DNA of 64,000 nucleotides from a virus. Lineage: Duplodnaviria > Caudoviricetes. The stretch lies in IMG/VR virus record IMGVR_UViG_3300022305_000561. The stretch is one strand, 5' to 3'. The position numbers and the translations under genes are program-made. Shown here piece after piece: positions 1,867-63,223 of this stretch. The first letter of the stretch is position 1. Every line of letters begins with the position of its first letter. The notes beneath the pieces are model-generated. The model saw only the letters and a list, made by a program, of their open reading frames with translations. It had not been told where the DNA came from and did not search any database.

Positions 1867-3348
1867 CTATTGAGGGTTTTGTTCTGGAGCAGGTTCTGGC
1901 TCCGCTTTGATTTGTTTATCAATTTCTTTGATTTCTTCATCAGTCTGCATCAATACATTCTTGCGAACCCAATTTATACTGTAATACTTACCAACAAACA
2001 TATCCATTGCGTTTAATGTAGCAAGACGGTTCTGCATAATCTCAGCATCTTTGAGTTCTGCATAATGGTTGTCTTGTTGAAATGTGTATTTGATGCCTTC
2101 TAGTATTTCTTCCCACTCATCCTCACGAATGATACCTTTCGATATCAATTGGATTCTAAGTATGCTTGAGAATAAACCAGAAAATTTATTTCTTAATCTT
2201 GAAATAAACTTTGAAAACTTAACTTCATCTCTTGTTATAGTAGATGATTGACCAATAGAGAATCCAGTATCAGGTCTTAACCTTGACATTGGTACACTCA
2301 AAGATTGGAATAATTTGTTTTGAAAATAATTGATATCTTCAATCTGACCTAAGTTTTGTGCCCCATCCAATGTAGATATCTCAGTTCCCTTTCCGCCTTC
2401 TCTTCTTGGCATCCAGAAATCTTCCATCATTGACAGGTGTTTCTTATCGTCTTTAATCTCACCAGTGTTTGCATCATAAACCAGTTTATTTCTAAACTTA
2501 TTCATAATGTCTTGCACATACTGTTCTGCTTTTACTTTAGGTAGATTGCCAACATCAATGTAAAATATTCTACGCTCAGGAGCTCTTGACACTCTGTAGA
2601 TTACCAAAGCATCCTCAATCATTTTTAGTTGATTGGTAGGTTTGATTGCTTTGTGAAGGTAACTTAATACCATTCCTGTATTTTGGTCTAACAATCCTGA
2701 ATTGCAATATGCAACCGAATCAACGCTTAACTTAACGCCTTGAGTAGTTCCAGCAGTCAATCCTTTATCATTAAACAAGTAATATTCATCAACTCCAAGA
2801 TTAATCTCAACGCCCGTTGGGGATTTGGATTTCTTTATTGATTTTATCTTTCTAATTTTTTGTGGTTCAATATACCTTAACTCAGATATGCCTGATTTCT
2901 TTGTGGCTTCATCTATAAGAATATTGTAATATAATCTTCCATCAATATACCAAGACCTGAATAGGTCGTGTCCTTTGTCTGAAAATTTCAATAATTTTAG
3001 TATTGCATTGAACTCATCAGTAACTTTAGTTTTGATAGAGTCTGAAATCTTTAAATCTTCAAGATTGATTTCTACAATAGGATTTATGCCATCAGAAACA
3101 ATAGCCTCATTAATGATATCTTGTACTGCTGAATCACAATCTGGATAATTGCAAGTGTCTCTATACTTTCGTATGAGGTCATTTTCATTTTTAAGACTTC
3201 CATCAAGGTCAACAGAAATACCATAATAGTTTGCAGCGGATACTAAAGTTGCACCATCATCTTGTGAGGGTGAAACTGGAGAAGCAACTGGCTTTTGATT
3301 TGATTTCTTTTTTGTTATATTGAAACCAAATATATCTAATGGATTCAT
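1867..3348 (-). CDS. gp20: portal vertex protein
   Basis: Motifs WYIDGRLYY, SYLHKAIKPTNQLKMIEDALVIYRVSRAPERRIFYIDVGNLP, EDFWMPRREGGKGTEISTL, ITRDEVKF. Confidence 0.98.
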   Translation of the reverse strand: MNPLDIFGFNITKKKSNQKPVASPVSPSQDDGATLVSAANYYGISVDLDGSLKNENDLIRKYRDTCNYPDCDSAVQDIINEAIVSDGINPIVEINLEDLKISDSIKTKVTDEFNAILKLLKFSDKGHDLFRSWYIDGRLYYNILIDEATKKSGISELRYIEPQKIRKIKSIKKSKSPTGVEINLGVDEYYLFNDKGLTAGTTQGVKLSVDSVAYCNSGLLDQNTGMVLSYLHKAIKPTNQLKMIEDALVIYRVSRAPERRIFYIDVGNLPKVKAEQYVQDIMNKFRNKLVYDANTGEIKDDKKHLSMMEDFWMPRREGGKGTEISTLDGAQNLGQIEDINYFQNKLFQSLSVPMSRLRPDTGFSIGQSSTITRDEVKFSKFISRLRNKFSGLFSSILRIQLISKGIIREDEWEEILEGIKYTFQQDNHYAELKDAEIMQNRLATLNAMDMFVGKYYSINWVRKNVLMQTDEEIKEIDKQIKAEPEPAPEQNPQ

Positions 3349-3375
3349 ACTATTCCTATCATATTTAATTATTTT

Positions 3376-3383
3376 TATTTATA
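3376..3383 (-). promoter_or_regulatory. T4-type late promoter TATAAATA upstream of gp20
   Basis: Exact TATAAATA on the minus strand about 30 nt before the ATG. Confidence 0.8.
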
Positions 3384-3392
3384 TAATTAATT

Positions 3393-3416
3393 GGGTAGGA
3401 TCCTGAGACCCTACCC
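3393..3416 (-). terminator. GC-rich hairpin after gp19 (terminator or stability hairpin)
   Basis: GGGTAGGGTC-TCAG-GATCCTACCC on the minus strand; no clear U tract. Confidence 0.5.
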
Positions 3417-3425
3417 TATCATAAT

Positions 3426-4028
3426 TTAACGACTTAAATCACCTGCAAGACCAGCAACTGCCTTAACTGCATTAGCAGCAGCACCAACAGCACCAATTAA
3501 TGAGCCAGCACCTGTTGCAGGATTAGTTCCTACCCAGTAGTTGTATTGTAAAGTGACTGGAAATTCTTCAATTTGTTGACCATTTTCAAACGCTAAAGCA
3601 ATTTCACCAATATCAATAGGGTATGCATCGACAAAAGTATAATGCATCAATGGAAAACCATTTCTATCTAATTGTGTGACGTGCATTTGCATTTGATATG
3701 CACCTGGAGTCGTTGCTCCACCAATCATTGAAGGTAAATTAATAAGATCAATCCATTTTTCAAAAGCATTTCTGATTTTGAAATTGGTTTCATTTATGAT
3801 AGTAATTTGCCAAGGTTGATAAGTTCTTTCGCCAGCAAAGTTTACATTTTTACCACGATATGCAACTTCAATATTTTGAATTGCAGATGCAGGTAAAGAA
3901 GCCGCTTTACATAAGAATTTAAGTTCACGACCAGCACCACCAGTAGGGAAGTTGATAGTGACTTCAAACTGGTTTGCTCTAGCACCACCTGAACTTAAAT
4001 GTGCCTTAAAATCATTTATATTTGCCAT
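3426..4028 (-). CDS. gp19: tail tube protein
   Basis: GGARANQF, FLCKAASLP, YRGKNVNFAGERTYQPWQITIINE, QLDRNG, IEEFPVTLQY; follows the sheath gene. Confidence 0.96.
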   Translation of the reverse strand: MANINDFKAHLSSGGARANQFEVTINFPTGGAGRELKFLCKAASLPASAIQNIEVAYRGKNVNFAGERTYQPWQITIINETNFKIRNAFEKWIDLINLPSMIGGATTPGAYQMQMHVTQLDRNGFPLMHYTFVDAYPIDIGEIALAFENGQQIEEFPVTLQYNYWVGTNPATGAGSLIGAVGAAANAVKAVAGLAGDLSR

Positions 4029-4038
4029 TTATATCTCC

Positions 4039-5940
4039 TTATGCGCCAAGAGTTGAGAAACTTACTGATTGACGACCAGCAATAAAGTTCAATGTAATGT
4101 AATTAATTGAATAATTAGGTTTGATATAGATATCAGCAACAAAATTATTAGAAGAAATTACTTGGTCAGTGTTATTAGTTCCGTCACAAACAACTTGGAA
4201 GTCGTTGATCCCACGTCTACCTTGAATGTCTCTTAAGAATGGTTCAATAATATTCTTAAACTGTCCTCTTGTGAATGAATCGTTGAATTCAAACAATTGG
4301 AACTTAGCTGCAAGAGCAACTGATTTTTCAAGGACGATAAACAATCTACGAACACCAATTCTGTCAAAAGCAGATGGTTTAGCAAGAAGTGTTTTATCGC
4401 CATATAATACAACGCCTTGACCTGGAAATGATACAACAGGGTTTACGCCATTTAGATATAATGCATCACGATCTGCTTGAGTTGGATTAACAGCCAACTT
4501 AACAACGTTCTTAATTTGACCACGATTCAAACCACCAGGACTGAACCAAGGATCATTAGTAGCATCAGTTCTAGCACACAAACCAGCGATATCACCATTT
4601 AATGGAACATATAGATATTTATCGTTGTATCTGTCATATTGATATTTATAACCAGAATCTAATACAGCAAATGAACTAGAAGGTAATGAGTCTCTATATG
4701 CATTGATTAAATTGGTGGCAGCTGAACCAGAACCAACAATTACGTCACCAGAAGTAGTATTTTCAGGTGAAATAAACACAATCACATCTTTACGAGCTTC
4801 AGCAAACCCAACCAAATAGTTGGCTAAAGTTGAAGATGCTTTACCAGCCGCAACATAAGCAATTTGATAAAGTTCAGCATTACTTAATATACTTAAAGCA
4901 GCGATTTTATTTTGATCTGTTACAGTAAAATCATCAACACCACCTGTAAATGCCTTAGCATAAGGAGTGGATAAGTTGCTCAAAGTAGATACAGCAGTTA
5001 AAGTTGTTCCCCAACCAGTAGCGCCAGTTGGATTAGATAACCACCAAATGTAGTTAGAAGTCCCATTAAGCACATCTTTGTAGAAGTTATTAGTACCGTT
5101 TTCTGTCTTAGCGTTTGATGCTTTAGAAACAAATGCAAATTTTTCTAATATAGCACCAGGAGTACCTGTCCATTCACCATTAGCATCAACCACTACAATA
5201 TGAAGTTCATCTTTTTGAGTAGAACCTTTAGAAGTAGCAAAAGATGAAGTGCTAGGAGCAGATGTAAACAAAGATGCATAAACCCAATCTACAGTTACAG
5301 CTGCAGCTGTAATCAATACGGCTGAATTAGAAACAAAAGTAGCAATAGTATCGCTTGTGATAGAAGCAACAACACCTAATATAACAGTAGCACTACTAAC
5401 AGTAGCACCAACATATAAATCTGTTAAGAATGCAGTACCTGTACCAGTTAATGTTTTAGTAGATAAAGAAGTTGTTGCTGTACCAGCAAGTGCAATAGCT
5501 TTGAAAGTTGCGTTATCAGCAATTTGTATTTTAAGGCTATTACCTAATGCCCCAGGATACTTAGCAGCAAAGTTTTGAGTGTTAGTAGCATTCTCATTAG
5601 TAGTTGCATAATCAGAAGCATTATTGATTGCAAGTGCAGTACCATTAGATACAGCATTTCTTTGTCCAGAAGTTGAAACACGAATGTTTAACAAATTGCT
5701 TGAATAAGACAAGAAATTGGCTGCTGTTAAAAATGATTGAGCAGTTAGTTGGGTTGGTTTACCAAATAAGGAAACCAAGTTGTTTTCTGATGTAATGGTA
5801 GTTGGTTCTAAAACAGGACCCCAAGTATATGCACCAACAAATCCACAAGCAGACGATGCTATTGTTGGGACTATGTTGGTAAAATCTTTTTCAACTACCG
5901 CAACGCCAGGACTTAATTGTATAGGCATGTTTCTCTCCAT
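4039..5940 (-). CDS. gp18: tail sheath protein (start probably ATG at 5928, MPIQLSPG)
   Basis: SPGVAVVEKD, WGP, YPGALGN, DSGYKYQYDRYND, PWFSPGGLNRG, GDKT..SAFDRIGVRRLF. Confidence 0.97.
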   Translation of the reverse strand: MERNMPIQLSPGVAVVEKDFTNIVPTIASSACGFVGAYTWGPVLEPTTITSENNLVSLFGKPTQLTAQSFLTAANFLSYSSNLLNIRVSTSGQRNAVSNGTALAINNASDYATTNENATNTQNFAAKYPGALGNSLKIQIADNATFKAIALAGTATTSLSTKTLTGTGTAFLTDLYVGATVSSATVILGVVASITSDTIATFVSNSAVLITAAAVTVDWVYASLFTSAPSTSSFATSKGSTQKDELHIVVVDANGEWTGTPGAILEKFAFVSKASNAKTENGTNNFYKDVLNGTSNYIWWLSNPTGATGWGTTLTAVSTLSNLSTPYAKAFTGGVDDFTVTDQNKIAALSILSNAELYQIAYVAAGKASSTLANYLVGFAEARKDVIVFISPENTTSGDVIVGSGSAATNLINAYRDSLPSSSFAVLDSGYKYQYDRYNDKYLYVPLNGDIAGLCARTDATNDPWFSPGGLNRGQIKNVVKLAVNPTQADRDALYLNGVNPVVSFPGQGVVLYGDKTLLAKPSAFDRIGVRRLFIVLEKSVALAAKFQLFEFNDSFTRGQFKNIIEPFLRDIQGRRGINDFQVVCDGTNNTDQVISSNNFVADIYIKPNYSINYITLNFIAGRQSVSFSTLGA

Positions 5941-41616: not shown

Positions 41617-41685
41617 TATAAATAGGTATAAGTCGCGATGTACCACCATCCACTTATTCTAAAACTATAACGGAGTATCAGCATG
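41617..41685 (+). ncRNA. conserved structured leader, copy 1 (late promoter, hairpin, RBS)
   Basis: TATAAATA-GGT-ATAAGT CGC GATG TACCAC CATC C ACTTAT-TCTAA...GGAG..ATG; covaries with the copies at 43853 and 55786. Confidence 0.7.
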
Positions 41686-42291
41686 ACTATTTATACAACA
41701 TTTATCCCAGACCAATATTGCGTCTATCACACCACCTATTCTGGATCGCTGATGCCAGCGAACTATATTGGCTCAACATCAGTAGACAATGTTCTCAATA
41801 AAAACTATCGTGGGTCTGTTGTTTCAAAAATCTATAAATCAATATGGAAATCTGAAATAAAACTGCATCCAGAACTATTCTCAACTGATATAGTATCATA
41901 TCACGACACTAGATCCGATGCGACTTGGAAAGAACTTCAGGTACAGAGAACTCTAAATGTTGTCAAGAGCGATTTGTTCGTAAATAGATCATATGCCACG
42001 GTAAATGGATTTCAAGATACAATATTTTCGCCAGAAGAACTCGCATCAAGAGGTAAGAACATATCAGATGCGCATGCCAATAGATCTCCAGAAGAAAAAG
42101 CAGCAACGAGTAAGAATCATTCTAATTCTTGGGATAACAAAACACCAGAAGAAAAAGCAGCATCCAGTAAGAAACATTCTGAGACTAAGGCTAAAAAGAA
42201 GGCAGAGTTAAATCTTCAACAAGCGAAGATTGCTCGAGAATTAGTTGTACTTTATCTTGAGGAAACTTTACAAATCTATCCAGTTTCTTAA
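41683..42291 (+). CDS. free-standing GIY-YIG-like (Seg-type) homing endonuclease
   Basis: YCVYHTTY..NYIGST..YRGS..E..Q..NVVKS..FVNRS catalytic domain; (S/T)PEEKAA.SK helical repeats; sits between gp59 and gp32. Confidence 0.75.
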   Translation: MTIYTTFIPDQYCVYHTTYSGSLMPANYIGSTSVDNVLNKNYRGSVVSKIYKSIWKSEIKLHPELFSTDIVSYHDTRSDATWKELQVQRTLNVVKSDLFVNRSYATVNGFQDTIFSPEELASRGKNISDAHANRSPEEKAATSKNHSNSWDNKTPEEKAASSKKHSETKAKKKAELNLQQAKIARELVVLYLEETLQIYPVS

Positions 42292-43852: not shown

Positions 43853-43945
43853 TATAAATAGAAGTAGGCAATAAAAAAAAAATGCCAATCGCGGTGCTAC
43901 CAACACCCATTAGCTCTAATCATTCTTCAGTAAGGAACTACCATG
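43853..43945 (+). ncRNA. conserved structured leader, copy 2
   Basis: TATAAATA...GCCAAT CGC GGTG CTACCAA CACC C ATTAGC-TCTAA...AAGGA..ATG. Confidence 0.65.
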
Positions 43946-44490
43946 ACCAGCAACAATATTTATACCCTCCAATTTTGTACTTACCTAACATCATATTCAG
44001 GTAATAAACTCCCACCCTTCTATATTGGCTCTTCTTCTACTGAACGCATATCCTCAGAAGAGGGATTAATTTATAGAAAAGATCTAAGCGACAAAATGAC
44101 AGGTGAAGGAAATCCTCAATTCGGGAAAACAGGCGAACAAGCAACTTGCTTCGGAAGAACAGGCGAACTTCACCCTCTCTTCGGCAAAACAGGAGAACTC
44201 TCTCCTAACTTCGGCAAAAAACGATCAGATGAAGTTAAGTTATCGATATCCATTAATCACGCAGATGTATCAGGTTCAAATAATCCTAGAGCAAAATCTT
44301 GGAAACTTACATCTCCTCAAGGAATAGAATACTATTGTAAAGGGAATATAGAAACTATAGTCGAAGAACATAATCTAGGAATATCTTCCCTGAAAAATGT
44401 CTAGGATCTATAGTTCCCCCTTTACAATATAAATCTAACCATCCAAAGACAAAAAATACTGTTGGATGGAAACTAGAAATACTAATTTAA
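43943..44490 (+). pseudogene. degenerate GIY-YIG/NUMOD3-like endonuclease (internal deletion and frameshift)
   Basis: YLTSYSGNKLPPFYIGSS jumps straight to GE.NP.FGK repeats; after the A5 run near 44395 another frame continues LGSIVPP..NTVGWKLEIL* to 44490. Confidence 0.7.
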
Positions 44491-45097: not shown

Positions 45098-45151
45098 ATC
45101 TACTTAACCCAACTACAGATATATTATAACGTGAAAATGAGTAAAAGTAAA
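45098..45151 (-). promoter_or_regulatory. sigma70-type promoter of clpP with the duplicated 30-nt leader
   Basis: TTTACT-17 nt-TATAAT; leader identical to 7797-7826. Confidence 0.75.
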
Positions 45152-45272
45152 GCTTTTCCGTAACTTATTGTTCAGTAACTTCTTTTAAAGAAATAAGTCG
45201 TTTTAAACGCATTTAAGAATATTAATAGGTAACTTTGTACGGGTATGGTATTTTAAGGAAGAAATGGTGTTT

Positions 45273-45316: not shown

Positions 45317-46156
45317 CTATAGGTTTAAAACATTCATCATAAATAATTCAGAATTACCATTATTCATAATAGGAATCCCTTCATATTTGAACTCTTTGAA
45401 CTTTTGTAATATTTCTCGTTCTAAGTTACGGGCATCAATTCCTTTGTCATATTTTAATTCTTGTATGATAGTAGTTTTTATGCCCTCTGGTATACCCATC
45501 CCAGATAATCTTTCTTTAGCTGAAAAATTAGTAATTCCTATCTTATATAATATCAGGTCATCAAGTTCGAACTTAATATAATAACAAGTTCCAGGTTTAC
45601 TGTTGTCGAACCCGCCCTTAATGCAATATGGGCACCCCTTTCCACTAAGGTGTTGATGAGGATACCGTAGGAATGTTCCATGAGACGAGCATTCAATTTC
45701 TACTTTCTCCTTGTCTGATATAAATTTAGTATTATTATATCCATACTTAGAGTTGAAAATTCGATTAGATTTTTTAATAAAGTTTATAGATTTTTTATTT
45801 TCTTTTTTATATTGGAGGTTAGCAATAGCTTCTTCTTTAACTAATTTTCTTTTAGCGATAGATTCTCCTTTAACCGCTATCTTTTTTGCGATAGATTCTT
45901 TTTTGCATTCTGGACAATATGACACCTTCCTTAATAGGCTATCAGGTCTTCTGAGAAACATACCATGGGTTTCATTTATTGTGCAAAATACTTCTATATG
46001 AATTGCTGAACCTTTATATTCGCCGTATCGGAATTTATTTCCGTGAAAACTATTTGCTTTTAGGATAAATTGTTCTGTTGTTATCGTTGAATAATTCCTT
46101 TTGTATGAAATTTTGTAGTAGAAAGTTATGGCAATCCTTACTAAAGGGAATTTCAA
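45317..46156 (-). CDS. putative endonuclease (DUF723-like Zn repeats plus a GIY-YIG/T5orf172-like C-terminus); start codon probably mutated
   Basis: TTEQFILKA..HG..Y, C..HG.F...GCPYC repeats; YYIKF..LYKIGIT..ERL..LEREIL..GNSELF. Confidence 0.65.
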   Translation of the reverse strand: MKFPLVRIAITFYYKISYKRNYSTITTEQFILKANSFHGNKFRYGEYKGSAIHIEVFCTINETHGMFLRRPDSLLRKVSYCPECKKESIAKKIAVKGESIAKRKLVKEEAIANLQYKKENKKSINFIKKSNRIFNSKYGYNNTKFISDKEKVEIECSSHGTFLRYPHQHLSGKGCPYCIKGGFDNSKPGTCYYIKFELDDLILYKIGITNFSAKERLSGMGIPEGIKTTIIQELKYDKGIDARNLEREILQKFKEFKYEGIPIMNNGNSELFMMNVLNL

Positions 46157-47726: not shown

Positions 47727-48041
47727 AATGAATACTTATCGTCCGATAATCTAGGATAGGGTTTTTCGTGCTTCATCGCTTCTGCAAAATCTAAAGCAAA
47801 TACTTTAGCCGATGACAATTTAATGAACACATATCTGTTGTAATCAGGCACCCTACGAGCAAGCTCAGGTTGGCCATCGCAGACTGACCACTCATTGTGC
47901 TTGGTTCTGAAGATAGCTACCACGTCAACAGGGAAATCCCATTTGTCAAGCTTGATGTCTATTTGGTACCAGTCTGTATTCACTTTACGGATTTTTGAAT
48001 TTTGCTGGTATAGATTTCTTTACTTCTTTGAATGTTTTCAT
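47723..48041 (-). pseudogene. hypothetical early gene with a +1 frameshift in an A run
   Basis: ATG at 48041 with RBS gives MKTFKEVKKSIPAKFK; removing one A at 47992-47996 joins it to IRKVNTDWYQID.. Confidence 0.55.
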
Positions 48042-48056
48042 TTAGTTCTCATTTAT

Positions 48057-48099
48057 TTAAATTATGAGTTATTATATACTGGATAGAATCAAAAGTAAA
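48057..48099 (-). promoter_or_regulatory. early promoter cassette
   Basis: TTTACT-17 nt-TATAAT-AACTCATAATTTAA. Confidence 0.8.
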
Positions 48100-48102
48100 G
48101 CT

Positions 48103-48498
48103 TTATTTTAAAATAAAACTTCGGAAAGATTCAACATGTAGCACTGGATTTGGGGTCTTAAAGTTCTTCTTGCGCATGATGGTTTTAGCAACAAGATCAA
48201 TCTTGTTAGTCTTGCGATCAAAGTGTATGTTCACTGGGATATTGATGTCAGTGCTGAGGGATTTGATGACCTCCTCAATTTCCTCAGGAGTCTTTGATAT
48301 TGTGATACCGAACTTATCATATAGACTATGATATACCTTACTGAGTTCTGCAACGGTGATCTGTTCGATGTTACGAGGATCGTTGAGGCGATCAAGGAAA
48401 TGTCCACTAAACTCAACATCAACATTAAGTTTAGCGAATAATTTATCCAACGACGTTTCAATGATTTTCAGTTGTGCTCTTGATATGGTGCTTGGCAT
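48103..48498 (-). CDS. conserved T4-like hypothetical protein, late-expressed
   Basis: HFLDRLNDPRN..I...EL, KTIMRK motifs; TATAAATA at 48525-48532. Confidence 0.7.
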   Translation of the reverse strand: MPSTISRAQLKIIETSLDKLFAKLNVDVEFSGHFLDRLNDPRNIEQITVAELSKVYHSLYDKFGITISKTPEEIEEVIKSLSTDINIPVNIHFDRKTNKIDLVAKTIMRKKNFKTPNPVLHVESFRSFILK

Positions 48499-51002: not shown

Positions 51003-51020
51003 AATATATTCTCTCTTTAT

Positions 51021-51063
51021 TTAAATTATGAGTTATTATAATATGAATAGAACAAGAAGTAAA
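51021..51063 (-). promoter_or_regulatory. early promoter cassette
   Basis: TTTACT-17 nt-TATAAT-AACTCATAATTTAA. Confidence 0.8.
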
Positions 51064-51137
51064 GCTTTATTTTAATTTATTTTCATATGGGTGTTTACAC
51101 TTACTAATTTTAATAAATACAATCATAGGAGATAAAA

Positions 51138-55399: not shown

Positions 55400-55711
55400 C
55401 TACTTGCTTGTTGCCACAAATGTTCCATTCCAGTCTCTGGGCAGTTTCTTACTAAGTTCATAATCAGCAATTCGTTGTATCATCATATCATAATAGTAAT
55501 CTAACTCACCATCAAACGAACCTTTCAATGCTTCACATTCTAACGCAGCAGTTGTCCATTCTTGTCGGTTGTAATGCCATAACATCTTATCGTGTATATT
55601 ATCTCGCATCTCTTTAGCCAGAACCAAATTCTTAGGTTCTAATACTGTATAGATGTCTACACCTTCAGTTTTTCCTTTTACGGAAATCGTATCTAACTTT
55701 ATTTCAAACAT
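55400..55711 (-). CDS. C-terminal fragment of the adenylate cyclase (KGK hairpin and TPR-like tail)
   Basis: LDTISVKGKTEGVDIYTV, Y..QEW..A, LP.DWNGTF.ATSK; same frame as ORF 55850-57601; own GAGG RBS. Confidence 0.85.
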   Translation of the reverse strand: MFEIKLDTISVKGKTEGVDIYTVLEPKNLVLAKEMRDNIHDKMLWHYNRQEWTTAALECEALKGSFDGELDYYYDMMIQRIADYELSKKLPRDWNGTFVATSK

Positions 55712-55854
55712 TGATTACCTCTTAGGTGTTGACCAAAGGCATTTATTGATATACCCTACGACAACATATACAATAAATAAATAGTCAAGCTGATACTCCG
55801 TTATAGTTTTAGAATAGGTGGGATGTAGGAATCCGCGACCTATAACTATTTATA
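55712..55854 (-). mobile_element. ORF-less endonuclease-leader cassette (copy 3) interrupting the cyclase gene
   Basis: TATAAATA-GTT-ATAGGT CGC GGAT TCCTAC ATCC C ACCTAT-TCTAAAACTATAACGGAGTATCAGC-TTG ACTATTTAT, nearly identical to 41617-41694. Confidence 0.8.
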
Positions 55855-57601
55855 TAAATTCAGATCTCAACTTATCTATTGTATTTTTACTTAATATTAA
55901 TGATACACCATAATTTTTTGTTTGTCCCTCAAGTCTAGCAGCAAGATTAACTTCATCGCCTAGTATATCATAACTGAACCTATCTTTAGACCCCATATTA
56001 CCAACAAATACCGTTCCTGTACTGAGACCTGCTCCAACTTGTAAAGGTGGTTTACCTTCAGCAACCAATTCAATATTCAATTCTGCTAATGCAACTTCCA
56101 TTTCTTTTGCTGCCTTTAATGATTTAGTTGCCTGATTATCTACATCCAATGGGGCACCCCACCAAGCCATTATTGCATCGCCTATCAGCTTACCCACAGT
56201 ACCATCATTATTCATTATTATTGGAAGCATCCTATCCATATATCTTGTAATAAGATTCGTCAATCCTTGAGGGTCAGTTTTATAATGTTCTGAAATAGTT
56301 GTAAATGACCTGATATCTGAAAAGTATATCGTCAGTTCTTTAGAATCTCCACCTAACTTCAACAGTTCTGGATTCTTCTGTAACTTTTCTACATAGTCAG
56401 GACTTAAGTATGTTCCAAACTGTTTCTTTATCTGGAGTTTTGCTTTAAGTTCTGTTAGGAATAAGGTGGCATATGTGTGTCCAAATACCGTTCCCACAGC
56501 GAGAATAGGTATTGTGATATCAAGAAGATAGTGGAAAGTATTAAATATACTGCTAGAGATAGGATAAAAAGAAAGTAAAATGCCACCGATAATAAAGATT
56601 CCATACTTGACCCTTGCTATTAAGATTGATAAAATGCTAAGTATGACCATAGCAAGTATTTCTGCACCAGTACTCCAATCAGGTCTTGATATATTAGTAC
56701 CTGTTGTTAATGTATTTAGAACGGATGCTTGAAGATGATGTGGAAAGACAGAGCCGTTAGCAGTGGCGACTGGGTTGTTGAGTCCTCTTGCAGATAATCC
56801 AACAATGACGATACTGGAGTTAAAGGACTCTGGAAGGTGGCTTGCTGAATATTCTGTAAATGTTGCTGGCTTAACCCATATCCTACCGATACTGTCTGTT
56901 TGAATCTTTCCGAACTTTGGGATTCTGACGGCTTCAATAGAATCATCATTGACTTTGACTTGAAAGGAAGGGTCTCCTGAAGCGACCCGCAATGTTTCAA
57001 GACTGATACTGGGGTACAATAGTCCGTTGGAATTGACCACCATTGGGATTCTTCGGGTAACGCCATCAATTTCTGGGAGTGTATTAACAACACCAACACC
57101 AGCAGCAGTATCATTAAACTCTTGTATGTTTGGCTGAATGTTACCATATTTCACTCCGATAGATTTAGCATCACCACCAATAACGGATACGCCTGGACGA
57201 AATGCTGCATACTTATCTGAAAAATATGAATCGTCTATTGCTGTTTGTGGTAGAACTACTGGATATTCTTTTAATGTGTTAGTAAAATTATTGTCGTATC
57301 CTGCTCTATCCACATCTAGAAGAAAAATATTAAAAACAACCAAGCCAGCGTTGAGATCATAAAGGTTTTTAATAAGAGCTGAATATTCGTTGCGAGGAAA
57401 AGGAAATTGACCTTTTTGAGAAATTGTTTCATCATCTATGTTCACCAATACTATGTCTGAATGTTGTATATCTTGTGTAAGAAGAGTATCAAAATATCTT
57501 AATCTGATACTCTCTACAAAAGTTGGGTCTAATACCCTTATCCCTACAATAAGTGATAATGTAATTAATGCACACCAGCGGGATAAGAGTATTTTTTTCA
57601 T
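55850..57601 (-). CDS. CHASE2-domain class III adenylate cyclase, N-terminal part
   Basis: TM, IVLVNIDD..GQFPFPR, DGVTRRIP (CHASE2), three TMs, FSDIRSFT, KLIGDAIMA.WGAP, GNMGS..YDILGDEVNLAARLE. Confidence 0.93.
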   Translation of the reverse strand: MKKILLSRWCALITLSLIVGIRVLDPTFVESIRLRYFDTLLTQDIQHSDIVLVNIDDETISQKGQFPFPRNEYSALIKNLYDLNAGLVVFNIFLLDVDRAGYDNNFTNTLKEYPVVLPQTAIDDSYFSDKYAAFRPGVSVIGGDAKSIGVKYGNIQPNIQEFNDTAAGVGVVNTLPEIDGVTRRIPMVVNSNGLLYPSISLETLRVASGDPSFQVKVNDDSIEAVRIPKFGKIQTDSIGRIWVKPATFTEYSASHLPESFNSSIVIVGLSARGLNNPVATANGSVFPHHLQASVLNTLTTGTNISRPDWSTGAEILAMVILSILSILIARVKYGIFIIGGILLSFYPISSSIFNTFHYLLDITIPILAVGTVFGHTYATLFLTELKAKLQIKKQFGTYLSPDYVEKLQKNPELLKLGGDSKELTIYFSDIRSFTTISEHYKTDPQGLTNLITRYMDRMLPIIMNNDGTVGKLIGDAIMAWWGAPLDVDNQATKSLKAAKEMEVALAELNIELVAEGKPPLQVGAGLSTGTVFVGNMGSKDRFSYDILGDEVNLAARLEGQTKNYGVSLILSKNTIDKLRSEFI

Positions 57602-62672: not shown

Positions 62673-62691
62673 TTTATATTCTCTCTTGTTT

Positions 62692-62735
62692 TTTAAAGTA
62701 TGAGTTATTATATAACGGATAGGGGCAGAAGTAAA
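62692..62735 (-). promoter_or_regulatory. early promoter cassette
   Basis: TTTACT-17 nt-TATAAT-AACTCATACTTTAAA. Confidence 0.8.
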
Positions 62736-62738
62736 GCA

Positions 62739-62996
62739 TTAATCAAAATAAAAAGTTTCTACAGTGAAACCACTTTGATCATTCATCCAACCACCATTAG
62801 GCTGTAATTCGCTGATAGTATATTCATCACCTGCCAGAACTTCCATACGGTAAATATCATCCGCATCACCGCCTATTTCTACGATAAGTTGATAATCGTT
62901 TTCTAAAAATGCAGAATACCTAAATCGGTATTTGTAATAAGAACTGAACGTGACTGTTACATCACCATATTTTTCAATAAATTCATCGTATGTCAT
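62739..62996 (-). CDS. conserved phage hypothetical protein
   Basis: EF.EKYGDV.V.FSSYYKY.F..GG.ADDIYR.EV. Confidence 0.65.
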   Translation of the reverse strand: MTYDEFIEKYGDVTVTFSSYYKYRFRYSAFLENDYQLIVEIGGDADDIYRMEVLAGDEYTISELQPNGGWMNDQSGFTVETFYFD

Positions 62997-63014
62997 TTTC
63001 GTTAACCCTCTTTA

Positions 63015-63058
63015 TTTAAAGTATGAGTTATTATATAATGAATATGGTCAAAAGGAAA
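63015..63058 (-). promoter_or_regulatory. early promoter cassette
   Basis: TTTCCT-17 nt-TATAAT-AACTCATACTTTAAA. Confidence 0.75.
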
Positions 63059-63061
63059 GCT

Positions 63062-63223
63062 TTATTTTTTGATTATAGTAAATGAACCATCTTCATTGGC
63101 TGCCCATTTTACAGTATCGCCATCATACCACCCTAGAGATTCAACAAGCTCCTCTGGCAATCTAATCATCAAATCGTTATCTGGACCAAACTCATAGACT
63201 TCTGATGTGTATGTCTTATCCAT
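63062..63223 (-). CDS. AbrB/MazE/SpoVT-like small DNA-binding protein (53 aa)
   Basis: Manual translation ..DLMIRLPEELVESLGWYDGDTVKW..DGSFTIIKK. Confidence 0.7.
   Translation of the reverse strand: MDKTYTSEVYEFGPDNDLMIRLPEELVESLGWYDGDTVKWAANEDGSFTIIKK

Follow-up and report, generated by a model that had tools for sequence, protein, structure and literature searches.

The minus strand of a 64,000-nt stretch of viral DNA (Caudoviricetes; IMG/VR record IMGVR_UViG_3300022305_000561), referred to here as the window, carries a gene for a CHASE2-sensor class III cyclase that is divided into two open reading frames (ORFs) between positions 55400 and 57601. The upstream ORF (55850–57601 including the stop; 583 aa) is predicted to encode an N-chain made up of the CHASE2 sensor, transmembrane segments, and a class III cyclase core without its last beta-hairpin. 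This ORF matched Pfam CHASE2 (5e-35) and Guanylate_cyc (1e-17), covering positions 7 to 155 only of the 183 in the cyclase model, and it retains the motifs FSDIRSF, GKLIGDA, and GDEVNLAARLE. The downstream ORF (55400–55711; 103 aa), which begins MFEIKLD, is predicted to encode a C-chain with the last beta-hairpin, including its near-invariant VKGK loop, followed by a three-helix C-terminal domain. An uninterrupted relative, L004 (relatives are given by L or P numbers), matched the PDB cyclases 6fht, 2w01, and 3r5g at 1e-25 to 1e-20; judged by these significant matches to CHASE2, Guanylate_cyc, and solved cyclases, the gene belongs among the CHASE2-sensor class III cyclases. No single chain holds the complete catalytic fold, as the VKGK hairpin sits on the separate 103-aa chain, and the fold is complete only if both chains assemble.

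Inspection of the junction revealed that the N-chain stop TAA (55850–55852) falls within TATAAATA (55847–55854), a motif of the T4 late promoter type. The N-chain C-terminus reads ...SEFI, with the final Ile codon and the stop both derived from inserted DNA. The ATG that restarts the reading frame (55709–55711) lies in the same frame, 141 nt (47 codons) past the first base of the N-chain stop, and is preceded at a distance of 5 nt by the Shine–Dalgarno (SD) sequence AAGAGGT (55717–55723; minus strand, 55709–55723 together with the ATG). An in-frame TAA two codons upstream of this ATG leaves no alternative start for the C-chain. A preliminary description, made from the sequence by eye, had reported an ORF stop inside an inserted promoter motif and an in-frame ATG 47 codons further on behind AAGAGG, in agreement with what we find here on the minus strand.

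Alignment to uninterrupted homologues, which the preliminary description had proposed, delimited the insert to 147 nt (55709–55855, minus), from the ATA codon before the stop through the restart ATG. The cyclase of Methylophilales phage Melnitz (683 aa, uninterrupted) aligns end to end with both window ORFs, and after removal of the 147 nt the two are collinear, without an indel. The metagenomic relatives L004 and L007 are likewise uninterrupted at the window's insertion site.

The source of the insert was disclosed by base-level alignment to L013, the closest relative that bears an endonuclease gene at this site, in which the N-half is 93% identical to that of the window. The 5' block aligns window positions 55870–55781 with L013:2855-2945, covering the promoter, the leader, and the first four endonuclease codons; the 3' block aligns 55780–55695 with L013:3431-3517, covering the last ~24 codons, with the SD lying within endonuclease coding sequence. 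Compared with L013, the window lacks the 485 nt between these blocks, a deletion placed at a short ATTTAT-like repeat. The 5' remnant proper (55781–55854, minus; L013:2871-2945) comprises TATAAATA as the late promoter motif of the cassette, the leader, the old SD, and the former start, now TTG, with three further codons, while the 3' remnant (55699–55780, minus; L013:3431-3517) holds the last ~24 codons of an L013-type protein with a 1-nt deletion and overlaps the first 13 nt of the C-chain coding sequence. A stub ORF of 10 codons opens at the TTG (55786–55788), crosses the deletion junction (55781/55780) out of the endonuclease frame, and ends at TAG (55756–55788, minus). The endonuclease is dead as a result of the 485-nt deletion, the ATG-to-TTG change, the out-of-frame junction, and two more 1-nt deletions; with only the stub left, the insert is a remnant rather than a member of the endonuclease genes. 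The parts of the cassette that survive are the stop, the promoter motif, the leader hairpin, the SD, and the ATG. Both descriptions of the insert given beforehand are thereby borne out: that it is an ORF-less endonuclease remnant supplying the stop, promoter motif, SD, and restart ATG, by the base-level alignment to relatives with full endonuclease genes, and that it is the third copy of a cassette with ATG changed to TTG and a 10-codon stub, by comparison with the copies at 41617 and 43853. A search with exact and gapped deletion-junction patterns in IMG/VR and JGI metagenome contigs found no second copy of this particular remnant.

Full endonuclease genes occupy the identical 5' junction in other relatives, with TATAAATA overlapping the N-half stop. 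Their products are of 191 aa in L013 and L018/L019, 256 aa in L014/L015 and L016, 303 aa in L005/L008, 286 aa in the P0168 context, and 268 aa as listed in L006 (254 aa from its ATG). These proteins open with an IY...Y(L/F)G motif and match the PHROG homing-endonuclease families phrog_314 and phrog_12324 and Pfam NUMOD3; their assignment to the GIY-YIG type rests on the motif and the PHROG matches, with Pfam reporting no GIY-YIG domain as such. The L013 and L014 types show a 13-nt overlap between the endonuclease stop and the ATG at which the C-half restarts.

Comparison of the same site across relatives further disclosed several states of decay. L012 carries a frameshifted endonuclease copy; L010/L011, whose C-chain occurs on at least 38 contigs, keep an in-frame mini-ORF of 192 nt made of the first 17 and last ~36 codons; and L017 has a 103-nt ORF-less remnant of the 256-aa type, formed by deletion between two TATCAG-ATG repeats. 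In L003 (5720-5800; also protein cluster P0162, 689 aa, 37 members), the cyclase is again a single ORF, with 9 extra codons at the insertion site that equal the last 27 nt of an L005-type endonuclease gene read in the cyclase frame, and with an N-half that is 85% identical. This match marks L003 as bearing a scar left by re-fusion, comparable to what has been called 'hit and run' in the MobA element. At the position of the L003 scar, L009 carries a longer extra segment, likewise in frame. A resemblance of the window's insert, read in frame, to that scar (5 residues, GFLH) was set aside as chance; the paralogous leader at 41.6 kb lacks GFLH. In L006, the spacer between the 268-aa endonuclease and the C-half (L006:6577-6640) is similar to the 3' end of an endonuclease gene of the unrelated L005 type, a sign that endonucleases have replaced one another in series at this site.

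Empty, occupied, decayed, and re-fused alleles are thus found among relatives, with mosaic flanks. In a tree of N-halves, the split alleles are paraphyletic, with the fused L003 and L004 nested among them, and the intact junction of L004 and L007 comes from a divergent cyclase segment. Of the 120 closest protein clusters, about 20 are of the split length (~580 aa), and these include 13 of the 15 that are at least 73% identical. Between the window and L013, identity in the N-half ranges from 81 to 99%. The C-half (window 55400–55700 vs. L013:3515-3812) is mosaic: identity is 85% at its start, falls to 63–69% in its central part, and rises to 96% over the final 90 nt, and the central part resembles L004/L007 rather than L013; by these identity steps, the mosaic is one of recombination close to the endonuclease site. 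L007 has a further interruption of its own (1938-4814): a distinct NUMOD3 endonuclease gene, antisense and encoding 234 aa (3018-3722, minus), splits the cyclase within the membrane region at residue ~330, and identity to the window drops from 79% to 51% downstream of it.

To evaluate whether both halves are maintained, the ratio of nonsynonymous to synonymous substitution rates (dN/dS) was computed for each, as the preliminary description had also proposed, using pairwise Nei-Gojobori estimates. The N-half gave 0.095 between the window and L013 at a dS of 0.44. For the C-half, where only pairs of two split alleles were compared, the values were 0.17 (L005-L006), 0.18 (L013-L017), and 0.14 (L016-L017) and, with the window as one member of the pair, 0.08 (L010), 0.36 (L014), and 0.47 (L013). 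The bootstrap upper limits of pN/pS, the corresponding ratio of proportions, were all below 1. These values, from 0.08 to 0.47, indicate purifying selection in the split lineages.

An AlphaFold2 (AF2) model of the uninterrupted L004 domain (predicted local distance difference test score, pLDDT, 94.8) places the split in the loop 179–182, between a helix and the strand 183–190, so that the C piece would consist of a beta-hairpin with the loop AVKGKTVG and three helices. Across an alignment of 76 CHASE2 cyclases, conservation is 90% or higher at residues V192, K193, G194, and K195 and at several tail residues, all of which the window retains. The counterpart of the VKGK-loop lysine in mammalian cyclase is K1065, for which a triphosphate contact has been discussed (PMC3591389), and on that ground the N-chain alone would lack part of the active site. 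The gene is contiguous in relatives and here consists of two conserved ORFs with their own stop and restart, that is, a gene in pieces. Endonuclease-split enzymes of this sort can be active, as in the case of the split nrdA of phage Aeh1 and the split gene 43 of phage 25 (PMC2988022). Because of the purifying selection on both halves, the location of the split in a loop between structural elements, the conservation of VKGK, and these precedents, a two-chain cyclase is the most likely reading, and the two-chain enzyme that the preliminary description had proposed receives indirect support from the selection estimates and the modelled loop position.

From the origin of the insert, its exact junctions, and the conservation of both halves, we infer promoter use, separate translation, assembly, and activity along the following lines. 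A free-standing GIY-YIG-type endonuclease cassette (Seg-like, NUMOD3-bearing) was once present in the cyclase gene of this pelagimyophage-like phage, at the loop just ahead of the last beta-hairpin of the catalytic domain. At its 5' end the cassette contributed the late promoter, whose TAA ends the upstream half, and a structured leader; at its 3' end it contributed the SD and an ATG that overlaps the endonuclease stop, from which the downstream half would restart. The endonuclease was later destroyed in this genome, leaving 141 nt between stop and ATG. The present cyclase would then be a 583-aa chain (CHASE2 sensor, membrane segments, and core) with a 103-aa chain (VKGK beta-hairpin and helical tail), the latter initiated independently at its own SD on a read-through transcript from upstream promoters and probably also on a shorter transcript from the late promoter. 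Non-covalent reassembly of both chains into an active enzyme, as demonstrated for other phage enzymes split by endonucleases, is the most likely outcome. We give this explanation as a whole, a two-chain cyclase split by an endonuclease remnant, a probability of roughly 0.72.

Several observations weigh against it. The promoter and the SD are motif matches. The dN/dS of the C-half is above that of the N-half, reaching 0.47 vs. L013, a sign of weaker constraint, and such pairwise estimates are blind to the window's own terminal branch since the death of the endonuclease. The insert provides no clamp-like terminal peptides, adding Ile and Met only, so assembly would rely on the native fold interface. 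L016 (2100-3315) has both its 256-aa endonuclease cassette and its C-half intact, directly adjoining the gp44/gp62/regA genes, and the 3 kb upstream contain no N-half; it is either an orphan C-half or a rearrangement. As this C-half persists without a nearby N-half, an intact ORF is weak evidence of function. The preliminary description had taken the intact look of both halves to speak against simple decay; intactness by itself counts for little.

The L016 allele and the C-half ratio of 0.47 would also be expected if the insertion had inactivated the cyclase and the halves of a decaying pseudogene were merely still undegraded, and the region around the locus is hypervariable and dispensable (PMC7029224). 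Against this, split alleles at a dS of ~1 or more still have both ORFs open with dN/dS of 0.1–0.3, three independent ORF-less remnants all retain the stop, SD, and start, and the near-invariant residues of the catalytic fold are retained in the C-half. We consider a pseudogene unlikely.

The element family that left the insert is represented twice more in the window, on the plus strand. An intact paralogous cassette (41617–42291) with a late promoter, hairpin leader, and 202-aa homing-endonuclease-like ORF (phrog_314 homing endonuclease, 5e-17; phrog_10820, 9e-24) adjoins a gp32-like gene. The second copy (43853–44404) has a 153-aa NUMOD3 endonuclease-like ORF, which may be truncated, and an extra small hairpin between promoter and leader hairpin (43862–43888; GGCA, an A-rich loop, TGCC). 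A 279-aa ORF at 45317–46156 (minus) with a C-terminal T5orf172/MUG113 (GIY-YIG-related) domain is also nuclease-like and lies in the same 5-kb stretch as both endonuclease cassettes. The 5' remnant in the cyclase is identical at 43 of 45 positions to the leader of the intact paralogue (41650–41694), which suggests exchange between cassette copies.

The leader hairpin of the insert (55814–55843, minus) consists of a 6-bp stem, a CGC bulge, a 4-bp stem, a loop, and a C bulge, with TCTAA coming next in the leader that follows TATAAATA; the same leader is present at window positions 41617–41686, 43853–43945, and 55785–55854 and in 12 cassettes of L003-L014. Across these 15 distinct cassettes, 96% of cells pair and 9 of the 10 pairs have changed on both sides. 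None of 500 shuffles paired as well, controls slid along the alignment reached 31–46%, and the folding energy is -9.3 kcal/mol (z -3.0). These results establish the leader hairpin as real. It sits just past the promoter and covers neither SD, and 5' end protection and an operator function are candidate roles. A search of 55650–55900 at E<=1 returned no Rfam counterpart. A passing resemblance to a tRNA T-arm was dropped, as the tRNA scan of window and insert and the Rfam scan were empty. Taken whole, the insert folds no better than shuffles (z -0.85). Of two further structures described beforehand, the second long hairpin exists (-16.6 kcal/mol, z -2.0, 6 of 200 shuffles as good) and is marginal and not conserved in L013; its candidacy as a terminator was rejected for want of a U-tract. 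The other, an ACCT/AGGT mini-hairpin said to cover the SD, is not significant (-2 kcal/mol, z +0.7).

Regarding the wider genome of this marine, T4-like phage, the window has, besides the gp32-like gene, a curli-like csgG/FecR cluster as well as baseplate and tail genes. At the protein level, its GenBank relatives are Pelagibacter phage HTVC008M and Methylophilales phage Melnitz (both Kyanoviridae); a megablast of the locus against GenBank phages gave no match, relatives there being at the protein level only. TATAAATA occurs in 24 copies in the window against 10.6 expected, an enrichment in keeping with a T4-type phage. In addition, five sigma-70-type, promoter-like cassettes of ~70 nt lie on the minus strand (45105–45190, 48040–48125, 51004–51089, 62676–62761, and 62999–63084), each with a GCTTTAC -35-like box, 17 nt, TATAAT, and a conserved AACTCATA-TTTAAATAAAGAG tail. 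By this layout they are probably early promoters with a leader, and they recall the mobile early-promoter cassettes known from T4-type phages. The last two (62676–63084) stand upstream of an unbroken run of minus-strand ORFs leading into the cyclase.

This arrangement bears on the timing switch that the preliminary description had derived from separate late control, in which the N-chain is made early and stays inactive until the C-chain arrives from the late promoter, so that cyclic AMP appears late only. In its favour, the window's remnant and the independent remnants L010 and L017 have all kept TATAAATA and the covarying leader hairpin intact, and the copy of TATAAATA in the insert is the sole minus-strand copy between 55.4 and 64 kb. 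Retention of the motif is partly forced, as it contains the stop codon, and the SD is not sequestered by significant structure. Furthermore, with early-promoter-like cassettes upstream on the same strand (62.7 and 63.0 kb) and no terminator-like site between the cyclase halves, the C cistron should also ride on the long transcript, which would carry both cistrons. Going by these motifs, the late promoter should add to expression of the C-chain rather than gate it, and a timing switch is decidedly unlikely. It is an equally doubtful proposition that the dead cassette has been domesticated, its promoter, hairpin, and SD being selected as a module for the small chain, a late 12-kDa subunit that switches on cyclic-nucleotide synthesis by a membrane sensor-cyclase made beforehand and inactive until then, with the remnant immunising the site against re-invasion.

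Joining of the halves into one chain by translational bypassing or read-through, in the manner of T4 gene 60, had been ranked low in the preliminary description, and we likewise find it very unlikely. The halves are in frame, and an ATA before the stop is matched by another ATA three codons into the C ORF. Landing on that matched ATA, however, would remove two conserved residues, and a second in-frame TAA lies two codons ahead of the ATG. The gap is 141–150 nt compared with 50 nt in gene 60, and the insert has no homology to the MobA bypass element (bioRxiv 10.1101/2022.08.31.505936); the gene-60 features of a ~50-nt gap, matched codons that restore the protein, and a MobA-linked cassette are all absent here. 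At the same junction, relatives with out-of-frame inserts of 600–1000 nt must re-initiate. The spacing from stop to ATG is in frame in two of six independent configurations (window and L010) and out of frame in four (L013, L005, L006, and L017), matching chance, and the meaning earlier attached to the exact in-frame spacing probably falls away. A self-splicing intron, intein, or assembly artefact, for which the clean in-frame insertion speaks and nothing more, has a negligible probability, given no Rfam match (window at gathering score; 55650–55900 at E<=1), a length of 147 nt that is too small for group I or group II, in-frame stops that exclude an intein, a 582/583-identical N-chain with the same end residue 583 on a second contig, the exact C-chain on 4 contigs, and an architecture common to many independent assemblies. 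Exact look-ups for the window's C-chain and for this N-chain variant yielded no DNA.

The kind of arrangement is already known from Aeh1 nrdA/mobE, gene 43 of phages 25/44RR, and the MobA element; what the present case contributes is a new host gene and the complete decay series. In Aeh1 nrdA-a/mobE/nrdA-b, a free-standing endonuclease also lies within an enzyme gene of a T4-like phage, leaving two separately translated ORFs, and the NrdA halves were shown to reassemble into an active enzyme (PMC2988022). The cyclase differs in that its endonuclease is of the GIY-YIG/NUMOD3 type rather than HNH, the host gene is a CHASE2 class III cyclase, the endonuclease ORF is gone in the window genome, and activity of the split enzyme is a prediction. 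Gene 43 of phages 25/44RR offers a single split site with a seg-type endonuclease gene in one phage and a short ORF-less spacer in its relative, and there, too, a leader hairpin lies upstream of the endonuclease ribosome-binding site without sequestering it. Whether that spacer preceded the endonuclease was left open in a review (PMC2988022), whereas the cyclase spacer can be aligned, base for base, with the two ends of the complete L013 endonuclease gene, which makes it a deletion derivative that follows the endonuclease.

The MobA element of topoisomerase genes 39/60 in T4-like phages (Manning and Atkins, bioRxiv 10.1101/2022.08.31.505936) shares with the present case recurrent insertion at a single site, genes that have stayed split after losing the endonuclease, and re-fused ORFs with element-derived codons, as in L003. 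Unlike MobA, the cyclase cassette has no bypass cassette and no element-encoded terminal extensions, and the downstream half has a plain SD and ATG restart. The model of Goddard and Burt reportedly describes a homing-endonuclease cycle of invasion, degeneration, loss, and re-invasion, and the relatives between them show all of its stages at this site: an intact endonuclease, a frameshifted one, internal deletion, loss of the ORF, re-fusion, and replacement (L006). In contrast to that cycle, the element here is free-standing and not borne by an intron or intein, so its loss leaves a split gene, barring a precise in-frame deletion or recombination.

The site presents a remarkably full natural series, from empty through three different endonuclease occupants, replacement, frameshift, in-frame mini-ORF, and two kinds of ORF-less stump to a re-fused scar. 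A covarying leader hairpin without an Rfam family is common to a family of marine-phage endonuclease genes. The finding adds a signalling enzyme, a CHASE2 class III cyclase that adjoins a curli-like gene cluster, to the short list of endonuclease-split phage enzymes, and it suggests that the class III cyclase fold naturally tolerates a split ahead of its last beta-hairpin.

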